Shown here: positions 1,055 through 25,534 of the stretch, one piece after another
Layout of the letters: the number at the start of each line of letters is the position of its first letter
How positions within the stretch are numbered: position 1 is the first letter of the stretch
Assembly (NCBI GenBank): GCA_000442015.1
Contig: KE561054.1
Location: 124,001-149,534, forward strand
DNA length: 25,534 bases
Direction: 5' to 3'
DNA from: Rozella allomycis CSF55
Lineage: Eukaryota
The notes under the pieces: generated by a model
Told to the model about the DNA's origin: nothing
What the model saw: only the letters and a program-made list of their open reading frames with translations
The model's database searches: none
Made by a program: the position numbers and the translations under genes

Positions 1055-1971
1055 TTAAACTGTGTTTATCTGAGAATTTGTTTCAAAAATATAACCGTTG
1101 CCTTTGTAGCTCGCCACAGGTAAAAGCCACAGTAGGGGACGATTACCGAAAACCTTTCAAAGGTATAATAAGAGTTTTACTTGAAGAAAATTTTCTCTAT
1201 TTCCTAGATCAAAAACGTTTGCACCGGATGATGTAAATCCAAATCTACTCTTCTCCATACTCTCTATCGTCGTTTTGTTTTTAAGTATTAGTTGCAAATG
1301 GTAAATAAGCAGAATAAATACCGTAAGACCGAAAAGTCCGCTCCCTAAAATACAGAACATCCATTGGAGATTATCGGTATCCCAGTTTTTAGATAGGTCC
1401 CTTGAAACATCTGCTATAGCAGGTGCGAGGACAATTAAAATGCTCAAACAGTACAATGACAAATACCAGAGAAACAAAATAAAAAATTTGTAATTCTTGA
1501 ATCCAACACAATTATTTACCCATGGGCAGTGGTGGTCCATTTTCAAAACACACTTTTTACAAACAGAGCAATGGTGGCACCTGTCTGGTTTAGGAGCATC
1601 GCACTTTCTGCAATATCTTTCTTTTCCATTTTCTTTTCTAGTAATACTTGGTGGGTTTCCAGTCGGAGCAAAATCCATACTTGATGATGATGGACACCCG
1701 GGATTCACGAAACAAGTTTTTAAATAGGAAACAATTAAAAGAACAAATAAAATATGGTAAAATATGACGAAAATGTAAGCATTTGTCTTTTGGACTGCTT
1801 CTGGAAGCCAGTGTTTCGCTGTTGTTAAATATTATGTTAAATCATACCACAGTAGGAAAAAATAATAACATAGTAGCTCCAAAGTATTAGAGAAATCGCT
1901 ATTAAAAAAGGAATCGCATTTGCAATGATTGAAAAGACTTTTGCGCCTCGTTCAAAACTGTGGCTGGCCAT
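1055..1971 (-). CDS. DHHC palmitoyltransferase (Pfa3/ZDHHC2-like)
   Basis: Contains C..C...KPDRCHHCSVCKKCVLKMDHHCPWVNNCVG and the TTxE motif (TTIES), plus TM helices. GT-AG introns 1819-1847 (29 nt) and 1154-1180 (27 nt) restore one frame from MASHSF to ...QINTV*. Confidence 0.93.
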
Positions 1972-2223
1972 GACAGTCGGGGTGGAGAACAAAAAATAGA
2001 AGATAAGACTCACCCGCTATACAGATATATGTTTTTCCTAATTATTAAATTTAACTAGTTAACGATACTTTTCTTCCTATTCTATGATTAATCGTATTTA
2101 CTTAATATATGATGCCATAAATCACTTTTCGTCTGATTTTTTTTAAAACATATTAAAATTTATATTAATAATTTTATANATATATGTCTGATAGAATTCT
2201 TAAAACATATAATAATTTTTTAT

Positions 2224-3608
2224 TTATTTCTTTTTGGGTGCGGTCACGTTAAATTTAAAGTAAATGATGTCTCCATCTTCTATCACATGATCCTTGCCTT
2301 TTTGGAGATACTTTCCAGCAGCTTTGACTTGAGCTTCTGATCCTAAATCCTTCAAGTCTTGATATTTCATGATTTCAGCCATAATAAATCCCCTTTCGAA
2401 ATCAGTATGAATAACCCCTGCTGCCTGAGGCGCCTTGGTTCCTTTTCTTATTGTCCATGCGCGAACTTCATCTGCTCCTGCAGTGAAAAAATAGATTAGT
2501 TGCAAAGAAGAATACCCGGTTACAATAATCCTATATTACAATCGAAATTCTAAAATATACTTTGGAAGGGCGCTTGTAGTGTTTAATTCTTTCAAATATT
2601 GCTCTTTTTCGTCTGGAGTGGACTGTGAGAGTAAAAGCTCCAAGGAACAAGAAAAGGGAATCAAAGTATCGCCAGGGGTGTTTTCGTCAATCCATTGTTT
2701 AATTTTAGGCAACCAAATATGTGACTATAATTAAAAATCTTACCATTTGTTCTTTTTACGAGCATAGTCAGTTTCAGAGATATTGGCCAAATAAGTTACA
2801 GTCTTTGCAGTGAGAAGCAAAAGGGAATTGATAATGTCAATTTCCTTGCCATTCCAGTCACCGTGACGAACGTCTTTTTTCTCTTCGCTGACCCATTTAT
2901 AAACCAATAATTTATTAATTGAAATTAAAATTACTTTTTCCACGGTTTCTAGCTCAAAGACCTTTTCTTTGTTTTTTTCCTGACCACGAATGCCCTTTTT
3001 GAGCGATTCATATTTATTTTTTAAAAATTCTTCATCTTTCAGTCGAAGTTCTTCATGAATGATGCTGAGGTCACGAACAGGGTCAACTTCTCCTTCGACA
3101 TGAACGACATTTGGCTCTGAGAAAGCCCTCACTACATGGAATATACCGTCCACAGCACGAATCTAGTAATTAATAAAAAAAACTTGATCCTACATTGGAC
3201 AAAAAGGCATTTCCAAGACCCGCTCCACTGGCAGCACCCTTAACCAGTCCAGCGATGTCGATGACCGTCAAGTAAGCAGGAACCTAAAATTATGAATATG
3301 TGCAATTACTTTTGACGCTGGCTTATACGTGTCACAAAGCCAATCAAATCTTGCATCAGGAACTGCAACTCTACTCTCCTCCGGATCTATCAATAATATA
3401 TTGTAAATATAATACCTATTGTACAAAATGGGTAATTCTCAGCGGCAACAGCAGAGTTTGTAAGAGCATTAAAAAACGATGATTTACAATTACCAGCAAC
3501 AAATGATACTTACCCAACATTTGGCAATCCTACTATGCCTATTTTCAAGTTATTTGATGGTCGCCCTAATAAAGGCTTTTCAGGCGTGGTTGATGTCTTC
3601 TTTACCAT
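2224..3608 (-). CDS. OLA1: Obg-like ATPase OLA1/YchF
   Basis: Motifs [42 protein letters not shown] and the TGS domain (EVRAWTI...[17 protein letters not shown]). GT-AG introns: 3387-3415, 3284-3309, 3163-3193, 2531-2560. Apparent GT-TG introns: 3487-3513, 2905-2934, 2714-2743. An upstream in-frame ATG lies at 3746. Confidence 0.95.
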
Positions 3609-3639
3609 TTTTTTACTTGCGAAGCCACGCTCTCCTTGG

Positions 3640-4097
3640 ATGAAAACCAGTTTGCGAATACGAGATCGAAAAGGTTTGGGCAGAATTGACGTTGAGAAAC
3701 TGGAGTTTGACCCTTTCGAAGCTAATGAAACTATTGGTGAAAACATTAGCCCTTCTGTGTATGAGGCGCTGCCATCATCCGTAAAAGGAATTTAAATGTT
3801 TGAATAGTAGTATCTTTTGCATTGCATACATGAAGCAACATCATTACACATCGAGGAACCCGAAAGTTATTTTTCAATGGATCCAACTGCTTTGATGGCT
3901 GCCGGTAATATTCTCAATACCAAAACAAGAAGGAATTCTGGTTCAAGAGTTGTTAAGGAGCGAAATATCATCCATGAAGGAAAATTGTAAAATAGGTAGT
4001 TAAATTAAATTTACCGACATCAGTTTTAAACGAGAGTGAAGACGCATTCTTTCAAGACCACATTCGAACACCAAATGAGCAAAGTTCAGAAGAATGA
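3640..4097 (+). CDS. Small spliced gene, Rrn10-like (RNA polymerase I upstream activation factor subunit)
   Basis: Exons 3640-3780, 3811-3904, 3933-3995 and 4024-4097 are joined by 28-30 nt GT-AG introns. The product contains ...EALPSSYLLHCIHEATS...YFSMDPTALMAAGILVQE..., resembling the Rrn10 pattern LPDSDLL..IH...DETAL.A.GIL.EE recalled from memory. Start codon is uncertain. Confidence 0.6.
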
Positions 4098-4214
4098 TAT
4101 TATATTAGTTCTTAAGGTTGGTGTTTAATTGAATGTCGGCATCCATTAAAAAAATAAACTTTTTTGCTCTGTTTGCCTGGGCAAGCCACTATAACCCTTG
4201 TCGGATTTTTTTCA

Positions 4215-4732
4215 ATGGTATGAATTTGAACTTTTCGTGTTTTATTATTCTTATATGTTTCGAATAGATATAATAATTACAGAATTTAATTTCTAGGTTT
4301 ATAATCGCTTTATTGAAGTTGGCCGTGTAGTCCTTGTTAACTATGGTCCAGATGCTGGAAAACTTGCTGTTATCAGCGAAATTATTGATCATAACAGAGT
4401 AAGCGCAATTATTAAGTAAAATACAGGCTATTGTCGATGGTCCAACTACCGGTGTTGCACGTCAACAATTATCTTTTCGCCGACTTGCTGTTACACCATT
4501 TAAAGTTTCAGTTCCACGTGGAAGTCGTTCAAAGACAATCAAAAAAGTTTTTGAAGCTGAAAAAATCGCTGAAAAATGGGAAACCACTTCCTGGGCAAAG
4601 AAATTAGCCGTTAGAGAAAAGAGAGCAGCCATGTCTGACTTTGATCGTTTCAAGGCTATGTTACTCAAGAAGCAACGCCGCGCTGTTGTTGGAAAGGAAT
4701 ATGGAAAATTGAAAAAAGCTGCCAAATTATAA
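4215..4732 (+). CDS. RPL14: 60S ribosomal protein L14 (eL14), 136 aa
   Basis: ATG, then a 79-nt intron (4218-4296), then [34 protein letters not shown], intron 4399-4426, then AIVDGP...SWAKKL...[10 protein letters not shown]... Confidence 0.95.
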
Positions 4733-4814
4733 TAAAATTCATTTCCATTGACACTTGTACTGTTTCTATTTCTAGTTTATTTTACGGCGATTCTTGTTGC
4801 TGGTGGCGCATTTC

Positions 4815-5220
4815 ATGAAAGTAAAGAAAAAGGATTTGAAACGGCAAGAACGCAAAGAAAATTTATTAAAAAGTAAAAGTTATGAAGTTTTTTGAAAAAA
4901 GATCTATACTCTAGGCCTAAAAATGAAAAAAGATGCAAGGCATTTGAATTAGATGATATAAAAAAGGAAGTTTTACTTAATGAAAAGGTTTTAGCATTGT
5001 CGAATGATTTTCACAAAGAAAAGGTTTCAAATAACCAGAAGAGACCAAAGACATCAAAAGGAAGGATTTCTACGTTGTATGGAGATTTTTTTCTTTTAAA
5101 TCTAGACACAAAGAGAAGAAACAGATAAATAATGTACTGAATTTTCCATTATTCCAGAAAGACCCAACTTCTGCTCTAAAGGAACATCTCAAAAACTTAG
5201 TTGAAACTAAACGAATTTAG
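4815..5220 (+). CDS. Slx9/FAM207A-like ribosome biogenesis protein
   Basis: Lys-rich N-terminus. GT-AG introns 4873-4901 and 5077-5105. The C-terminus KEKKQINNVLNFPLFQKDPTSALKEHLKN fits the Slx9 pattern VL..P.F..DP..A...HL.N. Confidence 0.65.
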
Positions 5221-5411
5221 TCAATTACGAAATGGTTTATTTGGATATTAACATGACTCAATAAAGGTGCTTCAGATTTTTTCAGTTACTCTGAAATAAT
5301 TCGGGATAACGTTATATAATATTATTGATAAAGCAATGAAATTATAAAAAATTTTGTGAACTATTTTATTGTTATCACAGTTAAGCCTGATTTAGCAAAA
5401 TTCCAGAATTC

Positions 5412-8023
5412 ATGGATTTTGTTTCTGCCTTACAAAACACGTTAGAAATATTTAGCAATGATCCCAGACCTTACCAAGAGGTTATCTATGATATCCTAAA
5501 CAGGGCAGATTGCTTGAACATAATCTTTTTGTGTTTTCAAGTAATATTGTGCAACCAAGATATATAGAATCGAGACCTTCATTTTACAGGATGCAAACTA
5601 TTAGAAATGCAACTCGTTAAATTAAATTATCAGGATAATATTGAAGATTTTGTCGAGACAATTTGGGCTACAATGGTGGAACAAATGTTCACTGCTAGAG
5701 ACGTTAGAAAAATATCAAAATGGGTAAACGAAATGATTTAGTCGCAAAGAGTGTTTGTATCGCACTTAAAAATGAATGGACTTTTCTTGATAGAATGTTT
5801 ATGTTCGCGGAAAGACAATCGCATTTTCAGTTCATATCTTTGTTTGTCATTGAATGTCTTCGAAATTGTACAGATCAATTTTTAATTTCTTCCTTTGTCA
5901 TTCAAAATTCAAAGTTTGGTGGTGATTGGAAAAATCATTTGGTGGAGAATCTTCCTAAATGCATGGATTTCTTAAAGCAATGTATAATTAATCTACAATT
6001 CTGCGAAGAATGTATGGAAGTCTATGGAGAATGGATAACATATAGTAGGTCTTTAGAGTAATTTGAATTCGATGCTCTAATAAGTGAACTAGTTGAGTAC
6101 ATTAAATTTGTACTTCCTCTATTAAGTAACACACTGTACTTTAAGATGGCATGTGAATGTATCAACCAGGGAGTTCTTGCCAGCCACCATTATAAGAGTC
6201 AAGAAAGCTTTATTTTTCTTGCTTCGAATTTAATTGAATTGTCTAATATGCTAAATGACGAAAATGATTTTTATTCATTCTCAAAGCTACTGGTCAATTA
6301 TGGCAGTACGTTTCCAAACACGTTTTTAACACATGAGCGCCTTATTCATTTACTTTTATCATTGACAACTCGAAATAGTATTTCTTATGATTTAAATATG
6401 TTGTATTTTCCGTGCTGGATTGATCTTGCGTACCATTGTAGCGAGAACGATCGGTTTAAAACAACACTTGAAAAGTGTGTGGAGGCAATGCTACCAAATT
6501 TGATCCATAAAATTTTATACGCTGAATATTCAACAAAGGACGATAAGGATGCCTTTGAATCATTTAGAAATGAAGTATCAGACCTCCTAATTGAATTTTA
6601 CAATTTTGGTTTTCTTAATTTAAGTTTTCTAGATTTAGTAATTACAGACAGTTGCTCCTGGAGGACACAGGAATTATTTTTTTATTTATCTTCGCAATTT
6701 ATTGCTAATGTTAAAGAAATTGATAGTCGTAATATCGTTTTCAGAGGCTTACATAACCTGCCATGTATTAATGATAACCAAATTTTATCAAAGAGTGTAT
6801 TTCGATTTATTGATGAAATTTGCCGCTCGGGTACTTTGGATCTTTTCCCAGATTTTCCTATGCTACCTTTATTGGAATACACTTTAAGCCAATTGAACAC
6901 AATTTCGAAGTTACGCAAAACAATAATTGGCATGTGCTGCAAAATAAATGCTTTGGAGATAAAAGTTTCTCCCGAATTTTTTTCCAATGTTTTGAAACAA
7001 TTTAAACCGAATGAAAATGTAGAGAATAAGTGCGTACTTTGCTCGATTATTGTAATATTGGGTCAGCATGATCAGAAATTTATTGAAAAGTTACTAAATC
7101 TTATCGATGAAGAAGGATGCGTATCTTTTCAATACAAATACTTCATGTCTGTTATAACGCATGTTACAGAGCCTGTAATTATTGAAGCCTTAAGACCACG
7201 TGCTAACAAAGTAATTTCAGCACTGATTGAATACCAATTACTAGAAGAGGCATTCAATTTCATCCCTATTGCTTTAGAAAAAAGTTGCGTTAATTTAAGT
7301 CCTGTCATGAACTTTCTTCATGAAGTTTTATCTAGTGACAAAGACTCTGCCACGATTGAATGTTGCATTAATTGCATGGAAAAGCTTCTTGTTATTGATA
7401 ATGCGCAATCTAGGTCAATTCTAGATCTTTGTCTATTTCGTCTGAAACATTTTGGTGCGACAATGTCAAATCAACCTGAGAATGTTGATTTAATATATGC
7501 GCTAATGAAAAAAGTAATATATTTTCTTTAGTGACAACTGTGCATTTCAGGTATGGCCGAGCTACCGACATCAATTGAAGACGTTGCCACCTTCACCCTA
7601 AATTTTTTATCCATTAAGAATAGAATATGCCTTGAAAAAGTTTGCTCCTTTTTGGTAGAAGATTATGCATGATAATTTTTAGGAATACATTTTAAAGCGG
7701 AAAAGTTTTTCCTTTTGTTCTATTGGATATCCAGTAACAGAGTTGTACACCAATCTATTTATCACCCCACTTCCGAAATCTTATTTGGAGGTTTTATTCC
7801 ACTTGGCGTTCCATATTAAGCGCCATTACCCACAGGAATTTATATTTTCCTTTAATAGTCTATTTAAAAATATGATTGAGAATAAATCCTTGAAAGCGAA
7901 TATTAAATTGCTACTTGAAAATGTTAACCGGTAAATATATCCCATTTATGCTTTACTGGAAGTGCTAGGAATATTAAGGAATTCAAAGACGCTTCATTTA
8001 ATATGTTAAATGCTTTAAAATAA
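5412..8023 (+). CDS. Large alpha-helical (ARM/HEAT-like) protein, possibly a divergent importin-beta family member
   Basis: ORF fragments join through GT-AG introns 5541-5567, 5724-5749, 6058-6084, 7655-7682 and 7931-7962, plus 7514-7540 (GT-TG). Leu-rich helical sequence with a 'SWRTQELFFY' segment like importin-13/transportin-SR W...E. The family call is tentative. Confidence 0.55.
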
Positions 8024-8208
8024 ATCATTTATTGACAAGTACACTAGGTTTATCTTTTAAATTTTATGAACGCTAGCAGTTTTTTAGATACATAAATGTT
8101 TTATTGATCAATTTAATCATTAGCAGAATATCAGTAAAGATTGATTATTTGTATCACTGAAAAACTTTAATCTTGCTGCTCCAACTTTTGGAAATTCCAG
8201 ATCCAAAC

Positions 8209-10715
8209 ATGAATAGCGAATTGACGCCATTGAATATAACTGAAATAGTCTCCGATGTCTTAATCAGTCTTTCTTATTTCGCAATACCATTGGAGATTTT
8301 CTATTTCCAAAAACTACTACCAAATCCATTCAAGTACAGAATTGTCATTTGGCTCTTTGAAATGTTTATTTTTGCTTGCGGAACAACACATTTTGTTGGA
8401 AGTTTTAAATTTTCTTATAACGTCGCTTCTATAATGGTTTTGACTAAGGTCTTGACAGCAATAGTTTCGTTCATAACGGCTATTCTACTTATCCGAGTTT
8501 TTCCGTTAGCGTTTTCACTGCAAAACAGAAATATGAAGTTGGAGGAAGAAATAGGGCTCAGGGAAGAAAATGAAAGAGAATTGATAAAAGCAAACGCTTC
8601 ATTGTTGAGATTTCGTAGGATAGTTAATAGAATTAGAAGTTCCCTGGATGAAAACATATTGATTGACACCGCAGTGAGAGAAATCCGAAGGGAATTTGCG
8701 GCTGATGTGTGTTTGATCGCACAAAAGGATTCCTTGGCAGTGGCTGAGGGGACTTTCAAAGTCAGGGGTATTTCATTCAAAACCCTTAAAGGGTCTATCG
8801 ATACATTATCATTAAACAGTTTAAACGAAAATAAAGATGCCAGTTTTATGAACAAGGATGAAATAAGAGGAATTTTCGGACTGGACACTTCTGTGAAGAG
8901 TGGCTTATTCATTAGATTGAAAGATTCTCAGAATTGTGAATTGGGGATTATGTTCTTATTAAATTATTGTTATGTTAATAAATTTGATGAGATTGAGATG
9001 GAATTATTGCATGAAGTGGCCATACAAATTAGCATTGCTCTTGACCAAGCTATTTCAATTGAAAAGGAGCGGCAAAGTGTAGAAAATTTAAAGAAAGAAT
9101 TTCAAAGAAATGAATTGCTAAATAAAGAAAAGAACGCGGCTGAAATGACAAGCAAAATGACCGCCGACTTTCTAGCCACAATGTCCCATGAAATACGGTA
9201 AATAAAAGTAAAATAAAACAATTTAGGACGCCTTTAAATGCCATAATAGGATTTGGAAATATTCTGCAGCAACAATCCTTAACAGAAGAGCAGCAGGAAA
9301 TTTTGGAAATGATAACTTCGAGTAGCAACCTTTTATTAAATCTGATCAATGATATTTTGGATTACTCAAAAATTGAAAGTGGCTTTTTGTCTTTGGAAGA
9401 TAAAGAATTTTCACTAGTGTCCTCCGTTGAGAGAGTTATTATGCTCAATTCCCAACATTCCTTTTCAAAGAACATTCAATTGAACATGTTTATTGACCCT
9501 TCCGTTCCAATTATGATAAATGGAGATGAAACAAGGTTGAAGCAAGTTTTAAATAATTTTATTAACAATGCCATCAAATTTACAGACACTGGAGAGGTTA
9601 TCGTGACTATCGCCACCACTGAAGATTACTTTAAATTTTACGATTTTTCGGAATGGAAAGAGTTTCATGTTTTGGCGGCAAACAACCATAACGTTCCAAG
9701 ATTGTACTTTAGAATTATTGACACAGGTATTGGAATCGCAGAAGAATCACTCCCAAATTTATTTCAGAAATTTAAACAAGTAGATTCCTCAATCACTAGG
9801 AGGTTTGGGGGTACTGGACTAGGCTTAGCAATTTCATTTAAATTAGTAGAGATTTTCCATGGGTCTCTCTCTGTTTCTAGTCTAGTCGGCAAAGGCTCTG
9901 CTTTCTCTTTTTCAATATCATTAGGATCAAACCCTGGTAAAAAATGGACTGAAAACCCCGCCTTTTCTAAAAAATTTTCAGTTGCAATTGTATCGCCCAT
10001 ATTAAGAACTCGCCAATCAATTGAACATATTTTAACTTGCCTTGAATACCCATTTAAATCGTTTTCTAGTATATCTGAATATTCAAAGTCTACCGATACA
10101 TATCGCATTGTGCTTGTGGATGAAACAGTATCTGAATCACACCTAGATAATATTACCATTCCTGAGAATTGCATGCTCCTTGTCAACAGTTCGTCTACCA
10201 TCCCTGTAACATTCAAACAAAGATTTGTCGCATGTTTAACAAAACCTTTGCGGTACACAAATATTATAAAGATATTTTCTTCAATTAATAATGGAAATTC
10301 AATATCCCTGGACAAGGCAGCTCATTTATCTAGATCTTCTCTCTTTGAAAAGAAGCTGCATATATTGGTGGTTGATGACAATGCAATTAACAGAAAAGTA
10401 ATAGCAAAACTCTTGGAATCTATTCTTTGCCCTCAAATTGATTTTGCTGAAGATGGCGCAGTCGCTGTAAAATTGGCGCTTTCGAAATCTTACGATATCG
10501 TCTTCATGGATGTTTCAATGCCCGTTATGGATGGATTGACAGCTACGCGACTAATCAAAAAAGAAAAGAAGGTGTTTATCGTCGCAATGACAGCCAATGC
10601 CCTCTATCAGGAACGCCTCTTATGCATGGAATCTGGAATGGATGACTACCTTGCAAAGCCCGTTTCACGAGATGACGTTATATCTCTTCTTGAAAGATTT
10701 TTGAAAAGACTCTAA
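8209..10715 (+). CDS. Ethylene-receptor-like (ETR1-type) hybrid histidine kinase: 3-TM ethylene-binding domain, GAF, HisKA, HATPase, receiver
   Basis: N-terminus SDVLISLSYFAIPLEIFYF...FIFACGTTHF matches the ETR1 SDFFIAIAYFSIPLELIYF...CGATH pattern. H-box SHEIRTPLN spans intron 9198-9226. N, G1, F and G2 boxes are present (NNAIKFT, DTGIGI, LFQKF, GGTGLGL). Receiver motifs VVDDN, FMDVSMPVMDG and KP. Confidence 0.93.
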
Positions 10716-10765
10716 TATTGATGGTAATAAATTATGATCCATAAACAATTTATTCTAATTAATGA

Positions 10766-11707: not shown

Positions 11708-11823
11708 GAAAACTTAAAAGTGAAAATCGGGAACGGAAATTTAAAGTTTAGATTAGAGATTGAGCATTAGCTTTCATGCCTATTAAAGGGAAAGACGCTT
11801 TTGGAATGATTTGAGTTTTTGGG

Positions 11824-12521: not shown

Positions 12522-12577
12522 TTAAATCTGTTTGGTGAAATGGCCACTGTTTTGGATTTGAGAATTTTCTGTTAATA

Positions 12578-14974: not shown

Positions 14975-15087
14975 ATTAAAAATTTTGTACGTAATGATCA
15001 CTGTATACTCATAAATGTATAATTGTACCCACAATAGTTCTGGATAAGACAAGTTCGATTAAAGTTAACCTTGAGATTGGATATCAA

Positions 15088-15160
15088 GGGCTCATAGCTC
15101 AGTTGGTAGAGCGCACGCTTTGCATGTGTGAGGCCCCGAGTTCAAACCTCGGTGAGTCCA
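15088..15160 (+). tRNA. tRNA-Ala(TGC)
   Basis: 73 nt cloverleaf. Acceptor GGGCTCA/TGAGTCC has the G3:U70 Ala identity pair. D arm GCTC-AGTTGGTA-GAGC, anticodon arm CACGC-TTTGCAT-GTGTG, T loop GTTCAAAC. An oligo-T Pol III terminator follows. Confidence 0.97.
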
Positions 15161-15341
15161 ATTTTTTTTGGTTCTCAATTTTCTAATTTGATGCGAACCA
15201 ATGATCTCGATATCCCTAATCTGTTTTATTTTCAATAAAATTTAATACAGAGCTTTTAAAACACTTATTTTTAAGCGAATTCGACGGTTGACCGATTTAT
15301 TGTGAAATATATTGGAAATTGTGTTAACTGTTATTGTCCAC

Positions 15342-16007
15342 ATGGAAGCGAAAAGACCAACAATTGAATTTTTCTTTGACATTCTTAGCGCATATTCCTA
15401 CATTGGCTTTGAAACACTACTTTCTTTAGATTGGGAAGTCAACATTGCACTTAAACCATTCCTACTGTTTAAAGTAAGCAAGGAATCTGGTAACATACCA
15501 CCGGCGATGATTAAATCAAAAAGATCATTTGTTTTAAGAGACCTGCAAAGACAAGCAGGCCACTGTGGAATCAAATTCTGTGTGCCCAAGAGATTTCCTA
15601 TTAACACCATTCCAATTATGCGATTCTTGGTACTGTTAAATGAAACAAATCGCATAGCAGCCTTCAAGGCCACAAAGGTACTTTTCAACTTATATTGGGG
15701 ATGTGGATTTGATGTATCAATATTTGCCAATGTCGTTGAAAAGCTTGCTTACGAAACTGGGTTTTCGAAAGATGAGTTGGCTGGTATGTACAAAAAATCT
15801 AACGAAGATGAAAATTACTTACAAATCCTAGATAAGAATTGCGCAGAAGCACTTGATGCAGGTGCATTCGGTGCTCCAACAATGCTGGTTAAGCTTACTT
15901 CCGCCAGTCATAAAGAATTTTTCTTTGGAAGCGATAGATTCCATCACATACAAGAATATTTGGAATCGGAACAGCCCGCTTTGATTCCCTCAAAGTCAAA
16001 ACTTTAA
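15342..16007 (+). CDS. GSTK1: Glutathione S-transferase kappa (DsbA-like/HCCA isomerase family) with C-terminal SKL
   Basis: Motifs IEFFFDILSAYSYIGFE, SGNIPP, GAFGAPTM and FFGSDRF. Protein ends ...SKL*. Confidence 0.9.
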   Translation: MEAKRPTIEFFFDILSAYSYIGFETLLSLDWEVNIALKPFLLFKVSKESGNIPPAMIKSKRSFVLRDLQRQAGHCGIKFCVPKRFPINTIPIMRFLVLLNETNRIAAFKATKVLFNLYWGCGFDVSIFANVVEKLAYETGFSKDELAGMYKKSNEDENYLQILDKNCAEALDAGAFGAPTMLVKLTSASHKEFFFGSDRFHHIQEYLESEQPALIPSKSKL

Positions 16008-16297
16008 TAAATCCATGTGAATCTTCTAAATGTATTCCTCAAGTCTCAACCATATAATACTTTTATATTTAACTTTGAGGCGGGATGTGATTAACAAACC
16101 CCGCCTTTAATGGGGTTTGAAAAATGAAGCTGAGCCCAAAACCAATTGAGCAAAAGGCCTTAGCTTTAGTGGACTGATATTGCACATAACGTATCCTAAT
16201 CCTTGATAATATTCTACAAAAATTTTTTTTGAAAAAGTCAAAGATTTATTCATGTCAGTAAAAATCGATATTACCCTTTTTCATATTTTCCGGTTTT

Positions 16298-16714
16298 ATG
16301 TTTGACTTTGATGACTATTTTTCAAGGCAAAATAAAAGACATGACTGGTACAACTATGCGACAATTCCAGAACCTGCTGACACATTAGTTAACGATCTGG
16401 GTAGAAGTATATTTGTATTTTCAAAGGGCACGGATCACTAATGCGTGAGCATTTTAGTGATACACGTAGATCAGAATCTTTAGTATATAGATTGTTGAAA
16501 AGAAATAAAAAGCAGCCACTGGAGCTTTTGGGTGAAGCGAAAACTAGTTTAGATCAAAAGTATGGTACGTTTGTTCCACTATAATATTAATACAGAAGTA
16601 AAGAAAGCTGAGTTTGATGGAAATTTGAAAAGAGAAATAGAAGAAGAATTGAATTTGTTTGATGACCATTTTTTTCAACAGTTGGAAAATAATTTCATGA
16701 AACTTTGCCAGTGA
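16298..16714 (+). CDS. Hypothetical protein (~119 aa), acidic/helical
   Basis: Exons 16298-16400, 16427-16564 and 16596-16714 are joined by 26 and 31 nt GT-AG introns into an open frame MFDFDDYFSRQ...NNFMKLCQ*. No family recognised. Confidence 0.5.
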
Positions 16715-16878
16715 AACAAGTTCCAAGTGTTTTTTGAGATTAATAAATTTAAAAAGATATTTTTAGATGAATAAAGTAAAAAAAATTTGAGATGAAGTTA
16801 TAAACCATCAAAAATCTTAGACCTTAATGTGAATAGTATTATATTGAATTAATATATCAGTATTGAACTAATTACTCA

Positions 16879-18257
16879 TTAGATATTTATTGTGTTGGCT
16901 AAACTTAAGATTTCACTACGGGAATATTTAGCTCCATTTTCTATTTCTTTTCGATGTATTCGTATTGCAGATTCCCAATTAACATAGTTATTTATTGGCA
17001 ACATGTCGTGCTTAGATTCATGATCTAATTGTTTATCCATGTCCTCCAATATTGCGTCTGCAGTAATATTGGCATCCATCTATGATTACCAGAACTAATT
17101 ATTTTACCATAGTAGATGCCAAAACTCCGCTTGGTCCTCTTTTGGCCCAACCAGCAGAGTAAAGCATGCAATGGCTGTCATTTGTCAATAATTTTCCAGT
17201 TGGATGAGTGATTTTGGAATTTTCTATAAGAGTGTCGATATTTTCTTGTGCGTAACCGATGCTACTAATGATTAAATCAGTCTCAATGTGTTCATGCTCA
17301 CCAGATGGGACTAATATATCATTTTGATTCCTATATTTGCCTACACTCATAGTTAAATGTTCATTCATTTTATGAACACATTTTGGGACCCTCATGAATT
17401 TAAATTCTAATGTTTTCTTTTTGATATTGCTAGCATCACTGGCCGAACTTAGAAGAAGATCTACGACTCTCTTTTTTGATTTTGACAATACGCTTGGTTC
17501 TGGATATATTTCTCTCTTATTTAATTTTATCTGAACATCATTGATGTTTGTAATTTCACGAATTTCTTTTGCTGTAAACTGAACCTACGAAATACTCAAA
17601 TGGTTTTTGTTACGTCATAAATAGACTTTCGTCCAATGATTAAAACTGTATTTATGGAATTGGAAAGATTTTCCAAGAATCCTTTATTAATATCCGTATT
17701 CTCTAATTCAGATTTAGGTTTCAGGAGCATTCTGGCAATGTCTAATGCTACATTACCATTTCCAATTATTGTGACGTGTTTAATTTTCGAAATTTTTTGG
17801 ATTAATTCAACATTATTTTTATCATTCGGCTCCGTGTTGTACAAAGCGACAAAGTCGACGGAAGTTACGATGTGTTCACTCCCATGGATGTGCAATTTGT
17901 TAGCCCCAGTCGCACCACTTGCCAAAAGAATAGAATTATATCGTTCGCATAATCTTTTTAACGGGATGTGTGTTTGATGAGAGAGAGGCTTCCTTAAATC
18001 ACCAATCAACACGTTTCCATAAAAATTCTTTAGGCTTTTACCGATTTCAATAAACTTTGACATGCAAGCCTTTCTATTCATTTTAATTAAGATACCTTCA
18101 CTTCTGGATGGTCTGGGGCGACACCATATTTTACCAGGCCAAATGGCAAAGGATGGCGTTCGAACATATCAATATGTATAGGAAATTTGGCCTTTTTAAT
18201 TAGTCTTTGAATACAGTAAAATGCTGCTGGTCCGCTTCCAACAACGGCGAGTCGCAT
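16879..18257 (-). CDS. ARH1: NADPH:adrenodoxin (ferredoxin) oxidoreductase
   Basis: Motifs MRLAVVGSGPAAFY, PFGLVKYGVAPDHPEVK, IIGNGNVALDIARML and GWAKRGPSGVLASTM. Introns 18070-18095, 17585-17613, 17080-17107. Confidence 0.93.
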
Positions 18258-18315
18258 TGATCAGTAAATTTCAAAAATCCAAACAACCTTCAGTATTGCC
18301 GCAACAAACACCAAT

Positions 18316-18851
18316 ATGGCGCAAACCAAAACTCCAGAAATTACTTCGACTCAAAAGTTTTTGCAAGCGGAACAAGAACTATATGAACTGGTATGCAGGA
18401 AGAAACAGGTCGACTTAAACTTGGCTCAACTTGAAACTCAATTATATCATTTTGAAAACACATATCTTGAAGATACAGCGCTAACAGGAAATGTTATAAA
18501 AGGCTTTGATGGCTATCTAGGCTTAAGGTCAGAGAAAAGACGAGGCATCAGAGATAGCGATAGATTATTCTCTAATTCTTCTGTAACATACCCAAAAGTA
18601 AGCCACTAAGATTATTTTTAAAGGCTTTAGCAATGCACTCAGAGACAGCGGTTACAGTGGAAAGGCCTTATTCTCCTGCAAATGATGTCCCGACTAGTTC
18701 AGGCGATGAAGCAGTAAGAAAAAGAAGAAGAAGAAAATCAAATTTCAAGGCAAGCATCGAAGACAATGAAGACTCTGATGATGAAGAATTTAAGGTTGGT
18801 CGAAAGAACATGACTACATCCGCTGTGTCCGACGAAGAAACAATCAATTAA
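18316..18851 (+). CDS. EAF6: NuA4/NuA3 histone acetyltransferase subunit Eaf6
   Basis: LAQLETQLYHFENTYLEDT..GNVIKGFDGY...DRLFSNSSVT. Intron 18598-18623. Confidence 0.9.
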
Positions 18852-18915
18852 TCGTTTCCCCTATTAATAAATTAATAAGAAATCGTTTATTTATTGAAAT
18901 GTAAGTTTTAATTAC

Positions 18916-19559
18916 TCAACCAATCATGCTTCGCTTCCTTCCCCGCAATCTTACTTCTTCCAACTTTATTACTATGCTCTCTGGGTTTGAAACCTTTTTA
19001 AAATAACTGGAGATAATTGTTTCAAAAAAGTCTTTGTCGTTAGGATGAGAGCTATCGAATGCGCGTTCAAGAACGTAAAGGTCTACAGCCTTGTCTTCGG
19101 CCAAGGAAGATATATATCCCAATCCAAAATCGATGAAGACCTATTTGAATATTATTGTGATTTTACAATTTCATTGGAAGAATTTTCTACCAATATATTT
19201 GAAGTGGTTAAGTCACCGTGAATTATGTCACAAGAATGTAACTTTGCAATAGATTCTCCAATGCTTTCAGCTAAATATGCATGACTGCTTATACACGATT
19301 TAAGTGGCCTCCCAGAAATATGTTCCATTGCTAATATACTTTCCTGTGTATCAACCCAGTACAAAACAGGTGTTCTTACGTCACATGACGCAGCCTTGAC
19401 TAATAGCTTTGCCTCCTGTGATAATCTTGACTTTGTAATGTTTTGATCTAAAATATGATGTCTATAATTTTTAGATTCTCTCTTCTTTAATATTATCTTA
19501 TCGAAATTCTTGAAACTTTGAGTAAAAGTCGACGCTTCAGCACCTTGGGAAATCAGCAT
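18916..19559 (-). CDS. BUD32: KEOPS complex kinase Bud32/TP53RK
   Basis: QGAEA, KNYRH..LD, IIHGDLTTSNIL, intron 19141-19166, then IDFGLG, EDKAVDLYVLERAF and VRLRGRKRSMIG*. Confidence 0.95.
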
Positions 19560-19575
19560 CCTGGAAAAATCTTAA

Positions 19576-19974
19576 ATGAAAATTCTACATGATCGGGTAG
19601 TGTTTCTTTCAGATGCCGAGGTTTATGATCATTTGAAATACGTTAGTAAAACTAAATGTTCTGTTGTATATGAAGTAATTTCTTATGACTGGGATTTTAG
19701 ACACAAATGTTTTTTGAAAAATGTAATATTGAAGTCACAAGGCTCTCTAAAGAGAAAATTTTAAGAATAAATGAAACCTTGAAAGCTTTCAACTTAACGC
19801 CTGCAGAAAAACTTCAAATATTTAACATGTTGCCAACATCTATGGTTGAATTGATATGCGTAATAATATTCCAGTAATTTCAATAAGATTATAGAAGAAT
19901 GCGAAGAACGCTTCCAGCCCAATGATTTACAGGAAATAATCGACGCTATTACTGAGGTCAAAAATGTTGAATAA
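19576..19974 (+). CDS. RPC17: RNA polymerase III subunit C17 (CRCP, Rpb4 family)
   Basis: MKIL.....LSDAEVYDHL at the start. After introns 19675-19700 and 19860-19887 it reads LTPAEKLQIFNMLPTSMVELICIIEECEERF. Confidence 0.88.
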
Positions 19975-20157
19975 ATTTTGAAATTTGATTTGAGTTTCCA
20001 ACTTTTATAATTTATACTATTCTTTTCCACTATATTTTAAAATTTAACTTCAACTTTTCTGCCCTTGGCCCATAGAAGTCAGAACGAACAGATTGATCTG
20101 ATTAACCCGTCAAGATGGCATAAATTAGTCGAATTACCAGTTTAAAATCTCGTCATC

Positions 20158-20545
20158 ATGAAAGTTAAGGTAACAGACTTTAATAGAGCTTAGATAGTTA
20201 AGTGAAAAGGAAGCGACAGATTTAAGAAATCAACTTGAAAATGTGCTTGAAGGTATTAGAAATGAAATTGTAAAGGCGAAAATGGAATTTTTGTCGACAA
20301 CAGATGCTCAAGGGAAAAGAGTATTGATCGAGAACGAATTTAATCAACTTCTCGATGAAAGAAAGGAGGCATGGGACCTTTTGCTCAAATACTATCAGGA
20401 TATTTTAAAAGGGAAATTAATTATTGGTAAAATCTTAATATATTCGCGTTGAAAAGTTAAGAAAAGGAAGTTCAAATCGATATCTAGCGACAATGAAGAA
20501 GATGAGACTGACAACGAAAATGAAGGCGACATGAATGAAGAATAG
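20158..20545 (+). CDS. Hypothetical small coiled-coil protein with basic NLS-like motif and acidic tail
   Basis: GT-AG introns 20170-20197 and 20427-20456 give MKVKLSEKEATDL...VKKRKFKSISSDNEEDETDNENEGDMNEE*. Confidence 0.55.
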
Positions 20546-20660
20546 TTTATAGCATTAATAAATGTTAAAAAATCGTATTAATATAGACTAAAATATATTT
20601 TCTCATGATTTCGTTTTTCCCATGTAGTAGCGAGGTCGGAGATATTCTGCTAACCAAGAA

Positions 20661-21822
20661 ATGTCATACTTGAAAGAACTAGAGGAAGTTTTGTACCGAA
20701 AGAAACGAGATCCGCAAAAGACACACACAATTATATTTGAAGATTTTACTGTACAGGATTTGAATACTCCTATGAAAGATATTGATGAGATATTGGATGA
20801 TCTTAATTTACTGATAGCAAAAACAAAAACAAGCAATTTATCAAAAGAAAAGGAAATAAATCAAAATCAAGTAAAGGAAGAACCTATTATACCACCTCAA
20901 TTAACGCCCATGAAACCTTTGAGAACTGCACCAGAACCTCCTAAAAAGGTTTCACAGTTAGCGTCGAGATCGGAAAGTCTCAAAGACTTTACTAGTTCTA
21001 CAGGCAATCAATTTGAGAAAATCAAAGGTAGTTTAATGAAGAAGGCTACTGTAAAAATATATATTGAGAATTTTGATACCTATAAAACGCTTGTTGTGAC
21101 TACTGTTATGACATGCGGGTTTATAGTACAAAAATTAAGGGATATGCTTAAAATATCTCAAGAAGACTATTACATTTATGAACTTTGCTTTGATTTCTTT
21201 GCCGGTACATCAATATCCTTCATGTGAATAAGCAAGACCTTTAAGATACGAAGAATCTTTAATGGATGTGCTTGCCAGTTGGGAAGAAGAAACAGAAAAC
21301 ACACTTTTGTTTAAGAAATGCAATTTTCCTCTGGGTTTAACAATTTCTGATGCAGTAACGTGATAAAGTTGTTTTAATTAGCAAAAAATACCCATGGCGT
21401 ATGGATATGCACAAATTGAAGGGAAACGAAACAAGTGGAACAAAAGATTTATCCAAGTTACTCCCAGGATTATATTTCACTACAAGGACGCCAATGTAAC
21501 TTGCATTATCTATGAATAGTTTAAGAAGACCGACGGTGAACTACTGTGTGATTTAATCAACTTTGAACCATACAAATTGACAGAAATCAATAGAAATTAT
21601 CCAACCAAAAATGTTCTGATCTTAAAATCTACTAGTCCCCTAAGGTCTTTTGAATTGATAGAAGATTACATTAAGTTTATTTGTTTTGACTCAGAAGAAA
21701 AGCTTAATGATTGGCTGGCGTCGATTCGTTTCACGAAACTACAACTAATCAAAGGAAGCGATAAAAAATTAGAGAAAAAAGAAATGTTAAAATCATTTTC
21801 AAGGTCTCAATCATATTTATAA
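20661..21822 (+). CDS. Ras-association (RA) + PH domain adaptor (Grb7/MRL-like architecture)
   Basis: Pro-rich linker, then RA-like VKIYIENFDTYKTLVV...IYE...RPLRYEE, then PH-like KWNKRFIQV...FHYKD...FICFDSEEKLNDWLASIR. Introns 21205-21232, 21355-21381, 21496-21525. Confidence 0.75.
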
Positions 21823-21841
21823 ATATTAAATAAGTAATAAA

Positions 21842-22949
21842 CTATTCTTCATCGCTTTCTATGCATACTTTACTACTCATCATATGACTTAATTCGGAAT
21901 GAACTTTTTCTTTTTCTTTGATCTCTTTCAGCTTATTCGCAGGTTTAATGTCAATATCAATAACTTTACATTGGTAACGTAATTGGTCTTTAGAGCTGAT
22001 CTGGATTCGTCCATGATTGGTTTCTGCTTGCTTGGATAATAGAGTAACCTCTTCTCGGCAAATATTTTCAAAGATATCTGGACTGGGGAATTCTAAAGTG
22101 CAGAAAAGGGACAAATCATTTAGTGTTGACGCTACCAAATTGTCTTCCAGTGATTCTGAGTTTGCCAAATTCTTCTGTGATAGTTTTAATTTTTGAAGGA
22201 CTCCCTCACCTGCTAAAATCATAGCCATACACCAAATGACATTATCAATTTCTCTTTGACATGCATTCAAATTAGGAACTTTTTGGCCACCCACAAAGAT
22301 TTTAACGTGGTTATGATTGCTATCTACCATTTGTTTCAATGTAAAGAAAATTCTTTCCTTCTTTCTTGAAAATAATCCCAGAGAGCAGCATTGCCAAGAT
22401 TTTCGTTTCTTTCGAAAATTGGAAGTACAATTACGACAAATATTTGGATATATGGATGCTATTTTAATGCCCCATTTCGGCTATACTCATCAAGTACATT
22501 TTATACCTTTATCTCAATAGAAACGGTCCGTAAGGTCTCCAATTCATGGTGATTCAACAATGATATATTGTTAATTAGAAGACCATGAATCTTTGAGTCT
22601 TTTGATATAGTGTTGCACATGCTCTTGACTGAATGATCGCGAAAATGAACTTCATCGTGGGCGCTCAATAGATCAAGAAACTCCTTACCACTGAAAACAA
22701 ACGGGCTCTAGTTTAAACGAAATTTATCGATCTACCTGAGGACTGTAGTACTCTGTTCCAATATATTTACAAACTATTTCCTTAGATTTTTCAATATCTG
22801 ATCGCCGTAAAGTCTTTGAAACACGAAGTAGAGTGTTTTTCTATGAAAATAAAGATTATCGGTATTACGTATTTAATATTCTTTCCGGTGTACTTAAAAA
22901 TGATATTGGCTCCACCCTCAGCATAAAGTTTCCATTCCGCGTGTAACAT
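21842..22949 (-). CDS. IPK1: Inositol-pentakisphosphate 2-kinase
   Basis: Motifs W.LYAEGGANIIF, VSIEIKPKWG, CRNC, STLNDLSL and VIDIDIKP..KL. Introns 22841-22868, 22708-22735, 22481-22506. Confidence 0.85.
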
Positions 22950-23172
22950 TTTGCGGTTTGCCGTTTTGCACTTTTCATTTTTTGGTATAGTCAAATAAAT
23001 TAGAACTCTGGTGACCGAATCCAATTTGTAGTTTTAACAATTTACTAATTTCAGCGTTATTTCGTTATAACTTCAACTCCCAAGTATGCACTTCGTATAC
23101 TCTCGTTAAACTTCTATACATTAATAATAAAAATAATTATCAGTAAATTTGGATTTAATATTAAATTTGTTT

Positions 23173-23978
23173 ATGCTTCCAACTTATCAGGAAACTGCCA
23201 CCACTAATTCTACATCTAGGCCTCATGCTATTTCCAGATATTTATTGAGACCATCATTACATGAAACAGATTCAATTAAGCTGAGAAAAAAAGCAATTTG
23301 TTGTGACTCATGTGTTCAACATTCCTGTTTCTGTTGCTGCCGTTCAGGCGAGCATTGTCTGTTCAGTTCAATGTTTGGATTCCTAGTATTAATATTAATA
23401 AGCACTTTGCTAATAATATATTTCCCCAAGCCATTGTCAATATCTATTGAATCAGTAAAATCAGTTGGACAGTCATCTATCCTAATTGATCCATTAACTC
23501 TATATAGCGATTGGAGTGTCAATTGCATGGCAGAAAATACTAATTCTTACTCGATGTACATTAAGAGTGCATTGTTCGAGGTATTCTACTAGTTTAGTTA
23601 ACTTTAGGTATATCATTCACTTGATCCGTCCACAAGCAAGTTGGGTGAAGGTGTTATCTCTGATTTCAAAGTGGATTCTGAATCAAGTAGCCAAGCTAAC
23701 ATATTCTTTAAGCTTCGTTACGTTTCATTATCCAAGGATGGAAATGATCCTGTGTTTCTGGATCTATTGGACAAATGCTACAATCAAAAGGGTATTCTAA
23801 ATGTAATTATTAAAACAACGTAAGCATTTGCAAGCTTTATTTTAGATCTGAATTTATTCTGTGGAATACATTTAACCTTAAATATCAATTTTCGTTCCCC
23901 GCCAATTTTGAATGTCCAACCATGATTGGGATCAACGTGCCACAGCCAGTACAGAAAACAATATCTCAGAAAAGGTGA
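23173..23978 (+). CDS. Single-pass membrane protein, LEA_2/TMEM106-like
   Basis: Cys-rich juxtamembrane segment, one TM ending in FPKP, then beta-rich ENTNSYSMYI (N.N motif). Introns 23581-23607 and 23820-23845. Confidence 0.65.
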
Positions 23979-24030
23979 ATTTTATCAAAATAAATTTTTT
24001 TCCATTTATTAACAAAATGTGATTCGTCAG

Positions 24031-24693
24031 TTACAAATTTACCTTAAAACTATTTAAGGGTTTAGCCAATTTAGGATCGGTTTTAATATTCTCTGGAATT
24101 CTACAAACAAACTCTTTATCTAATGTAAAGGAATATGAATCCTTTATCCATTTTAGTGGTGAGAGGAATGAAAGCGTGGTGTTAATGTTAAAATGTACAG
24201 TTTTGGATTTTGAGCATGCTATCAGCAATTCGTCTACCAATTGTTTGTGCTCAAATTCTTGTGAGTAAAACAATTGCATTCGGCAATCCATATTTATCTT
24301 TTCACTACTTCTTCGTTTAAAACGTGGCGATTTTGTCATGCAATAGCCTAAAGGGAGTATTTTATAATTAACCTAATCGATAAAATGAATATTTTTTACG
24401 TCAAGTTGCATTTCTTTTAATTCTACATCTACTTCATAAGGACTTTCAGCAATTAAATTCAATGAAGCCTCTGCCGTGATGTTAAAACGAAAATTTGGTT
24501 TTTTTGTTACAAGTTCATGAATAATATAATTTTGAAATTTAACATGGCCGATTTTTACTTTTGGGATTTGAAAGTTGAATAACGACAAGAAAGCCAACGA
24601 AAATCCTATGATCAGCAAGCCAAAAACACCGAAAATGAAAAACAAAATGGTAGACACTCCACAAAGAGGTCGCTTTTTCCCCACTTTGGACAT
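24031..24693 (-). CDS. Single-pass membrane protein, LEA_2-like
   Basis: Basic N-terminus, TM, FQIPKVKI, then beta-rich domain. Intron 24373-24399 joins the two ORFs (MQLD|VNYKILPLGYC). Confidence 0.6.
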
Positions 24694-24723
24694 GCCAGCC
24701 ACAATTTTGAAGGCATTTATTTT

Positions 24724-25534
24724 ATGGACAGAAGCCAGCAAGTTCTCCTAAATGTATAACATTTTATTAATGTAAATATAGCAAGTAGATAAATGGCTTC
24801 ATGAAAATAACATTTTGCTGAATGTCAGCTGCCTTGAAGAAGCCAATGAACTGTACCGGTTTTCAAAGATTAACCACTTTGCAGAGGAAAAATCAAAAAT
24901 GGCTATTGAATTCTACGATATTCTATCCCGATCTTTAGAACACCAAAGTACATGTGTTAAATGATTGTGTGACCAGAACATTTGGATTCTCAAATTCTCG
25001 ATAGTCTACCATTAGAAAGATTTTTAACGGCCAAGGCGGATAAAATTTTGCATATTCTTATTGATATTTCTGTGTCATTGCAGTTGGAAGAACTGGAACT
25101 TAATGACATGATTATTGGCATAACAAAACTAATCAACGAGGAGTCACGATTGCGAAAAATTTGTGATGAACAAAAAATTATGCGGATGGATGTCAAAGAA
25201 ATTGCTGAAAAAAGAATGCAATCCTCAAAAAATAAACAGTACAGTAAAACATTGATTAATAATGATATACTGCCCAAATGAGCGAAAATACATCCAAAGA
25301 GATTCAGAAGTCTTTAGAATGGACTCACTGGAATTCCATAATGAATGCAAAGAGAGAAGAATACAAAAACAGACTACAAGAACTCTCTACTATATACAAT
25401 GGCTCAGATGTTGAGGAACAAGAGCTACGATATCCCTTGATGCAAAGATTAGTTCATAATTTTGAAAATTTCGAGAAAATGCACCGAGAAAAACAGTCAG
25501 AGCTTATGGCGGTTAAAGACCTTCCCCCGGTAAA
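24724..25534 (+). CDS. HAUS1-like augmin subunit, 3'-truncated by the window edge
   Basis: QVDKWL near the N-terminus, FLTAKADKILHILIDISVSL, AKREEYKNRL and terminal DLPP follow the order of HAUS1 motifs recalled from memory. Introns 24754-24781 and 24948-24976, plus a third near 25244-25272. Confidence 0.6.

Follow-up and report, generated by a model that had tools for sequence, protein, structure and literature searches.

Near-minimal introns with a 26-nucleotide floor, and predicted TG acceptors in OLA1, in a 25.5-kb stretch of the Rozella allomycis genome

What marks the 3′ end of an intron that is only about 30 nucleotides (nt) long? An AG at this end is one of the least variable signals in eukaryotic gene expression, and a 25,534-nt stretch of the Rozella allomycis CSF55 genome (GenBank assembly GCA_000442015.1, contig KE561054.1, positions 124,001 to 149,534; hereafter the window, whose own numbering we use) raises the question of whether it can sometimes be replaced. 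An initial annotation of the window had placed about 50 GT introns, nearly all of 26–32 nt, five of them seemingly ending in YTG, and had proposed that the 3′ site is set mainly by distance plus a final G. We examined this stretch of one contig together with homologous proteins, solved structures and public DNA runs. Non-AG acceptors were supported by homology in the window's most conserved intron-rich gene, OLA1/YchF (minus strand, 3608-2224), identified via homologues and solved structures, in which three of the seven introns (3487-3513, 2905-2934 and 2714-2743) end in TTG.

Removal of all seven introns leaves an OLA1 frame of 394 codons without stop or frameshift, and homologues match its product from end to end. 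We aligned the 393-residue model with 14 fetched homologues, 11 of which reach the 3487-3513 joint, and found it free of gaps at the TTG joints in every sequence that reaches them (11 of 11, 14 of 14 and 14 of 14 for 3487, 2905 and 2714, respectively). Intron 3487-3513 splits the P-loop motif GxxxxGKS: in rice OLA1 (5ee0) exon 1 runs to residue 36 and exon 2 resumes at 38, in the human protein (2ohf) the corresponding residues are 33 and 35, and the joint codon supplies the glycine between them (G37 in 5ee0). No frame-compatible AG lies within 80 nt of this donor and no other AG, in any frame, within 70 nt, so the TG cannot be the partner of a nearby AG. Intron 2905-2934 is in frame and free of stops, and if kept it would lengthen the protein by 10 residues; none of the 14 aligned homologues has its ten codons, and its removal brings residues 191 and 192 of Schizosaccharomyces pombe YchF (1ni3) together. 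At 2714-2743, 1ni3 residue 244 is the last of exon 5, W245 is encoded across the joint and exon 6 continues from 246, with no frame-compatible AG within 80 nt of the donor. At the level of DNA and protein homology, then, the TG acceptors of OLA1 are real, and the RNA would be spliced at exactly these joints.

The deposited OLA1 model (P0001) is faulty at exactly the three TTG introns. It has a spurious N terminus without the P-loop, keeps the ten intron-coded residues and lacks 18 conserved residues before WLPKIK, errors to be expected of a gene finder that allows AG acceptors only. The new model is more identical than the deposited one to all 14 homologues (for example, 288 versus 253 of 400 positions).

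Could the non-AG ends instead be assembly or sequencing artefacts, or OLA1 a decaying pseudogene with introns that are not removed? The window is draft sequence with two N bases (2179 and 12347). We turn to four public runs that were aligned to 2200-22199, including X1, the likely source run, and X5, which is of another year, sample and study. X5 reads the same letters at four TG ends (the three TTG ends of OLA1 and the CTG of 7514-7540), although 11 letters differ elsewhere in 2203-8082: its contigs 2203-5180 and 5151-8082 carry 2 and 9 other letters, respectively, none at acceptors (differences listed at 2841, 5428, 5738, 5741, 5857, 6741, 6752, 6799, 6807 and 7233). Assembly error, which the initial annotation had named among the conditions that would refute its claim, is excluded for these four sites. 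A pseudogene would be at odds with the intact frame and the end-to-end homologue match, and no second Rozella-labelled OLA1 was among the best 120 of 1952 matches. Both versions of this explanation are largely refuted, and we give them very little credence.

Equally improbable, in our judgement, is a fault in the gene models at the TG ends, for instance a non-GT donor paired with an AG or two-step (nested) removal. Alternative acceptors were listed for the modelled donor only, which leaves some room for such errors, but the number of removed bases is fixed exactly by homology. A one-base slide at 2714-2743 or 3487-3513 gives GG..TT or TA..GG and is no better, and use of the nearest AG inside 2714-2743, 11 nt upstream of the TG, would produce a 19-nt intron and a frameshift.

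All genes were modelled by dynamic programming, in a small gene finder that had the window's long open frames as its training set and combined codon log-odds, GT donors and acceptors ending in G, with mild penalties on non-AG ends and on lengths outside 26–31 nt; an open frame was checked for every model after intron removal. A first, permissive gene finder was dropped as it chained genes across intergenic DNA. The window is AT-rich (G+C 0.30–0.39) and gene-dense, with a coding share of about 83%, and its genes use the standard code. In total, 23 protein genes were modelled, 20 of them with introns and all 20 open once these were removed, giving 54 introns (Table 1). Their density, 2.56 per kb of coding sequence, agrees with the value of 2.5 per kb printed for R. 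allomycis in the accessible part of PMC8476143.

The introns fall into a strikingly narrow range: 26 nt (14 introns), 27 (8), 28 (13), 29 (9), 30 (6), 31 (2), 32 (1) and 79 (1). Thus 53 of 54 measure 26–32 nt, as had been expected from the initial annotation, and none is shorter than 26 nt as modelled; the earlier inventory was incomplete in that it had missed the 79-nt intron (4218-4296). For each intron, we listed every acceptor that, with the same donor, leaves the exon downstream open, and called an intron frame-fixed if no other frame-compatible AG or TG lies 15–45 nt from that donor. All 28 frame-fixed short introns measure 26–30 nt, so the length range was not made by the gene finder's prior. 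In nearly all of the remaining introns, the model takes the first frame-compatible AG, and the alternatives are 33–80 nt away. Raw counts of GT..AG pairs in the window, taken regardless of gene models, showed no length preference, indicating that the pattern is a property of the introns rather than of base composition.

The suspected 'ruler' is best described as a hard floor at 26 nt, with the first AG from there on taken as the acceptor. With the donor given, the first AG at 26 nt or beyond is the modelled acceptor in 47 of 48 AG introns, and the same rule succeeds in 43 with a floor of 24 and in 34 with a floor of 27. Extended to the first AG or TG at 26 nt or beyond, the rule gives 51 of 53 acceptors, compared with 44 for a floor of 24 and 37 for a floor of 27. 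Closer AGs are indeed skipped, as first reported, 33 of them across 27 introns and 9 lying at least 20 nt from the donor, but all except one end before nucleotide 26; they look like sites that are too close rather than the losers of a free choice. AGs at 24–25 nt are passed over too. The clearest case is 12099-12124, where the proposed skip of a TAG at 24 nt (12122) for a GAG at 26 (12124) is required by the zinc-knuckle spacing: only the GAG gives the second knuckle the form C-X2-C-X4-H-X4-C, matching the first zinc knuckle of the same protein. Two introns contain in-frame AGs below the floor (3905-3932 at 25 nt and 21496-21525 at 24 nt), so the absence of anything shorter than 26 nt is shown for the frame-fixed set only.

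At the 5′ end, GT was found in all 54 introns, and among the 53 short ones GTA in 52 and GTAA in 35. At the 3′ end, 49 of 54 carry AG, and the last three bases of the short introns are TAG (26), AAG (16), CAG (5), TTG (3), GAG (1), CTG (1) and ATG (1). Of the two acceptors initially described as common, AAG therefore is and GAG is not, and the supposed five YTG introns resolve into three TTG ends with homology support, a candidate CTG with a 48-nt GT-AG alternative and a candidate that in fact ends in ATG. The base at −2 is A in 48 short introns, T in 5 and C or G in none. T is the commonest base inside these introns, ahead of A, yet A dominates at −2, which argues that AG is strongly preferred and TG is a fallback. 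The proposal of distance plus a final G thus holds for distance, through the 26-nt floor, but not for indifference to the base before the G. Nor is the number of Gs from position 26 to the used site significantly below expectation (4 versus 7.0 expected, p = 0.16), or that of TGs over the same stretch (1 versus about 3–4 expected by hand count).

Consistent with the initial annotation, neither a branch motif nor a pyrimidine tract rose above controls. CTAAY occurs in 2 of 53 short introns; the best TACTAAC-like score averages 4.61 against 4.62 after shuffling, with 269 of 500 shuffles reaching the observed value; and searches with 4-mers, 5-mers and TRAY patterns gave nothing above shuffles, the top branch-type 5-mer, TTAAT, having z = 2.0 prior to multiple-test correction. 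The pyrimidine fraction is 0.50 at −14 to −4 and 0.53 upstream. The U12-type 5′ box RTATCCTT is present in 0 of 54 introns, the closest match being GTATCTTA at 18070-18095. One positional signal emerged: 33 of 53 short introns have an A at position 23, counted from the donor (background 0.36), or, by length, 10 of 14 (26 nt), 5 of 8 (27 nt), 8 of 13 (28 nt), 6 of 9 (29 nt) and 3 of 6 (30 nt). The 5′-anchored maximum over positions 7–23 was equalled by 5 of 5000 within-intron shuffles and the best 3′-anchored column, −4 (30 of 53), by 136 of 5000; an A occurs somewhere at positions 22–24 in 43 of 53 introns. Position 23 may, as a guess from sequence, be the branch adenosine, with a constant spacing from the 5′ splice site.

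We consider it probable that these are near-minimal, tightly bounded spliceosomal introns that use the first AG at least 26 nt from the donor, with TG as a fallback in the role of sole acceptor. Rozella introns would have shrunk to this size while keeping as signals a GTA(A) donor, a low G+C content (0.25, versus 0.35 in exons) and the first AG beyond the floor; where the short reach holds no AG, a TG there would be used as the only acceptor. The branch adenosine would lie at a fixed distance from the 5′ end, near position 23, and the 26-nt floor would represent the branch plus about 3 nt, with geometry holding the 3′ site in place so that the −2 base may be U or A. In post-catalytic yeast spliceosome structures, the last G of the intron pairs with the first and the A at −2 contacts the branch A. 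A U at −2 could keep this contact, and given the contact it would be the least surprising substitution. It is also the classic change that an altered Prp8 can accept: yeast mutants with UAG changed to UUG at the 3′ splice site are reportedly rescued by prp8 alleles. Unlike that crippling mutation in a laboratory reporter, TG in Rozella would be natural and constitutive. An unusual spliceosome in Rozella is plausible. More tentatively, and with less than even confidence, we propose that it measures rather than reads, placing the branch about 23 nt from the 5′ site and taking the first A/U-G three or more bases on, and that across the genome several per cent of introns have UG as their constitutive and only acceptor.

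A rival explanation is ordinary splicing, branch point first, in which the branch site is degenerate. Here U2 picks any suitable A and the first AG past a minimal spacing is used, the lengths reflect selection for the shortest workable intron, and the TG ends are leaky exceptions in OLA1, perhaps inefficient or regulatory. The 48 AG ends among 53 short introns, the lack of C or G at −2 and the non-significant depletion of G and TG all fit this explanation. TG acceptors also exist, though rarely, in human U2-dependent introns: the available text of Szafranski et al. 2007 (PMC2374985) reports them in 36 genes, at about 0.01% of candidate TGs, always requiring an AG within 28 nt and never as the sole acceptor. 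The Rozella sites resemble these in pairing a GT donor with a TG acceptor, in having a pyrimidine at −3 (4 of 5 candidates) and in that TG is the one tolerated non-AG dinucleotide. They differ in that three of seven introns in an essential, intact gene far exceeds a leak rate and that 3487-3513 has neither a nearby AG nor any in-frame alternative. Ordinary splicing would further have to do without a branch-like motif that exceeds shuffles and with a sole positional signal that is anchored 5′, not 3′. We regard it as unlikely, while taking it seriously.

Several observations weigh against near-minimal introns with a TG fallback. First, all three secure TG acceptors lie in a single gene (3 of 7 introns, versus 0–2 of the other 47), as leaky OLA1 exceptions would. 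This cluster may be peculiar to the gene, or it may reflect biased detection, since TG ends show up only in a very conserved protein: one OLA1 TTG intron is invisible to frame tests and the others are mis-modelled in public annotation. A scan of metagenomes for relatives, using the OLA1 alignment, returned 80 loci of 48–65% identity, mostly mRNA-sized contigs of unrelated eukaryotes and none near Rozella. Second, each of the other two candidates has an in-frame GT-AG alternative, of 48 nt for the CTG intron (7514-7561 in place of the 27-nt GTAAT..CTG 7514-7540) and of 44 nt for the ATG intron (25239-25282 in place of the 26-nt 25239-25264). An exhaustive, profile-free search of 1.8 billion representative proteins with the helical-repeat protein that contains the former (5412-8023) gave one match, 94% identical; this protein (P0121, 6086-7513), presumably from the same species and differently modelled, stops exactly at the 7514 donor. 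For the latter, a Pfam HAUS1 match begins at exon residue 4 under the 26-nt model, a weak hint. Judged on the length distribution alone, the short version is somewhat more likely in both cases.

Third, the AG-or-TG rule misses two introns as modelled, 3781-3810 (TAG at 27 nt) and 7931-7962 (CTG at 28 nt). Each lies at a gene end that is not conserved, and there the site favoured by the rule would merely shorten the protein by a few codons, so neither can be scored; the skip of 3807 for 3810 noted initially is weakened likewise, as 3807 would simply end the protein. Fourth, the 79-nt intron, directly after the ATG of a gene that we take from its translation to be RPL14, skips AGs at 50 and 65 nt, and the acceptor rule thus fails for some introns. 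It looks like a second, conventional class that recalls the rare, long and well-spliced introns of microsporidia, and it behaves as ordinary splicing of a longer intron would predict. T-rich in its 3′ part, it has a TTTAAT some 10 nt before the end, and two letters of run X1 within it, at 4269 and 4278, depart from the window. Fifth, 48 of 202 GTA triplets in sense exons have an AG at 26–32 nt and are evidently unspliced, so more than donor and distance must be read. These decoys have a G+C of 0.36 and none pairs GTAA with a G+C of 0.30 or less, making low G+C the obvious candidate for the extra information. Finally, position 23 is A in just 62% of introns, and the RNA run X12, aligned to 2200-22199, gave 13 pieces, of which those listed are chance matches of 22–27 nt with 1–3 mismatches and unlike flanks, a result that also leaves the artefact explanation some ground.

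How does this arrangement compare with known systems? In Paramecium, nearly every intron with a length divisible by three carries a stop, and the same is true here of 13 of 14, the stop-free one being the TTG intron 2905-2934 of OLA1. Narrow-range tiny introns are described, in the accessible part of PMC10245619, in mikrocytids (16–17 nt), chlorarachniophyte nucleomorphs (18–21 nt), heterotrich ciliates (15–16 nt) and Paramecium. As in these lineages, the Rozella window combines many introns per gene with narrow lengths and a hard floor, leaving little room for separate branch and pyrimidine signals. It departs from them in its range of 26–32 nt and in some TG acceptors, and from mikrocytids, whose introns are conserved in sequence, in having no conserved internal sequence.

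Microsporidia, the sister lineage, offer a parallel in one respect. The short introns of Encephalitozoon cuniculi are about one-third the length of its 76-nt intron, and the rare long ones are well spliced (Whelan et al. 2019, PMC6349667, in the portion available), similar to the short introns and the rare long class of about 76–79 nt here. Microsporidia have few introns with conserved motifs, whereas Rozella has 2.5 per kb and almost no motif. The same portion of that paper points to a pair of putative introns in Rozella S23, each about 30 nt long and devoid of the conserved 5′ and branch motifs, and makes no mention of TG acceptors. In a survey that includes Rozella, the range of intron medians among fungi starts at 29 bp (PMC8042348, available part). 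Our search of the literature on Rozella and fungal splice sites, with the 2013 genome paper outside its reach, found nothing on TG acceptors in this lineage and only passing remarks on Rozella introns of about 30 nt; the Paramicrosporidium paper does not treat introns.

A free-standing TG acceptor in an essential gene would, if true, provide a natural system in which to study the role of the −2 base in the second splicing step and to see how far geometry can replace sequence. With Rozella treated as the sister lineage, it would bear on how the heavy reduction of the microsporidian splicing machinery began. Should the spliceosome indeed measure, this would be the first lineage whose U2-type GT introns routinely end in non-AG. 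The public gene set, limited to GT-AG introns, would then be systematically wrong at such sites, as it is for OLA1, and comparative studies that use this proteome inherit errors of that kind.

Table 1 Introns modelled in the window (frame-fixed as defined in the text; AG and TG distances are counted from the donor)
Position	Strand	Length (nt)	Gene	Ends and remarks	Basis
1154-1180	-	27	DHHC palmitoyltransferase	GTAAA..AAG	frame-fixed
1819-1847	-	29	DHHC	..CAG	frame-fixed
2531-2560	-	30	OLA1	..TAG	frame-fixed; homologue alignment
2714-2743	-	30	OLA1	GTAAG..TTG, non-AG	homology, 1ni3 numbering, X5
2905-2934	-	30	OLA1	GTAAT..TTG, non-AG	homology, 1ni3 numbering, X5
3163-3193	-	31	OLA1	..TAG	model, homologue alignment
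3284-3309	-	26	OLA1	..TAG	model, homologue alignment
3387-3415	-	29	OLA1	..TAG	frame-fixed; homologue alignment
3487-3513	-	27	OLA1, P-loop	GTAAG..TTG, non-AG	homology, 5ee0 numbering, X5
3781-3810	+	30		as modelled; AG at 27 nt (3807) gives immediate stop	unconserved gene; model only
3905-3932	+	28		25-nt AG also in frame	gene model
3996-4023	+	28		..CAG	gene model
4218-4296	+	79	RPL14	long intron, after ATG	frame-fixed
4399-4426	+	28	RPL14	GTAAG..CAG	frame-fixed
4873-4901	+	29		..AAG	frame-fixed
5077-5105	+	29		..TAG	frame-fixed
5541-5567	+	27	helical-repeat protein	..TAG	frame-fixed
5724-5749	+	26		..AAG; X5 differences inside at 5738, 5741	frame-fixed
6058-6084	+	27		..AAG	frame-fixed
7514-7540	+	27		candidate non-AG, GTAAT..CTG; or 7514-7561 GT-AG	both in frame; no X5 difference
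7655-7682	+	28		..TAG	gene model
7931-7962	+	32		..AAG as modelled; CTG at 28 nt (7958) ends protein 3 codons later	model only
9198-9226	+	29	ethylene-receptor-like hybrid histidine kinase	..TAG; splits HisKA	frame-fixed; Pfam on both exons
12004-12031	+	28		..TAG; splits first CCHC knuckle	gene model
12099-12124	+	26		..GAG; skips TAG at 24 nt (12122)	CCHC spacing
12338-12363	+	26		sole GTT donor; holds N at 12347	gene model
12944-12972	+	29	bromodomain protein	..TAG	gene model
13435-13463	+	29		..AAG; internal AGs at 12, 17 nt; splits bromodomain	frame-fixed; Pfam positions 1-74/84 end at donor
14394-14419	+	26		..AAG; internal AGs at 17, 22 nt	gene model
14740-14765	+	26		..TAG	frame-fixed
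14887-14914	+	28	bromodomain protein	GTAAG..TAG; probable last intron of gene	gene model
16401-16426	+	26		..AAG	frame-fixed
16565-16595	+	31		..CAG	gene model
17080-17107	-	28	adrenodoxin-reductase-like	..TAG	gene model
17585-17613	-	29		..TAG	gene model
18070-18095	-	26		..AAG; skips TAG at 22 nt	gene model
18598-18623	+	26	NuA4/Eaf6	GTAAG..AAG	gene model; Pfam
19141-19166	-	26	Bud32-like kinase	..TAG	frame-fixed
19675-19700	+	26	Rpb4-like	..TAG	gene model; Pfam
19860-19887	+	28		..AAG	frame-fixed
20170-20197	+	28		..TAG; internal AGs at 17, 19, 24 nt	weak: first exon 4 codons
20427-20456	+	30		..AAG	frame-fixed
21205-21232	+	28		..AAG	frame-fixed
21355-21381	+	27		..TAG	gene model
21496-21525	+	30		..AAG; AGs at 24, 33 nt also in frame	gene model
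22481-22506	-	26	inositol-pentakisphosphate 2-kinase	..TAG	frame-fixed
22708-22735	-	28		..TAG	frame-fixed
22841-22868	-	28		..TAG	frame-fixed
23581-23607	+	27		..TAG	frame-fixed
23820-23845	+	26		GTAAG..TAG	gene model
24373-24399	-	27		..TAG	frame-fixed
24754-24781	+	28	HAUS1-like	..TAG	frame-fixed
24948-24976	+	29		..CAG	frame-fixed
25239-25264	+	26		candidate non-AG, ..ATG; or 25239-25282 GT-AG	both in frame; weak Pfam HAUS1 hint

Pfam matches to single exons identified a DHHC palmitoyltransferase, an ethylene-receptor-like hybrid histidine kinase, a bromodomain protein, a DSBA-like protein, an adrenodoxin-reductase-like oxidoreductase, a NuA4/Eaf6 subunit, a Bud32/RIO-like kinase, an Rpb4-like protein, an inositol-pentakisphosphate 2-kinase, a HAUS1-like protein, an ankyrin protein and a zinc-type dehydrogenase. 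The start codons of OLA1, on the minus strand, and of the next gene, on the plus strand, are 31 bases apart (3608-3640). The histidine kinase (8209-10715) carries ETR1_N (E = 1e-24), GAF, HisKA, HATPase and receiver domains, a sensor resembling plant hormone receptors in a parasite of a water mould-like fungus. Behind 17798, in the adrenodoxin-reductase-like gene, X5 and X6 share a 3-base insertion (GGA), an in-frame length polymorphism between samples. X1 yielded second contigs with clustered differences at 2534-2593, 9202-9251, 10370-10421 and 11672-11944, at a depth of about 50–120 compared with 200–340, and its main contigs break at those four places, which points to two haplotypes or to copies that are nearly identical. 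At 15088-15160, two protein genes are separated by a tRNA-Ala (TGC) gene, where the depth of X6 leaps to about 1400, as expected if the gene is shared with other organisms or copies.

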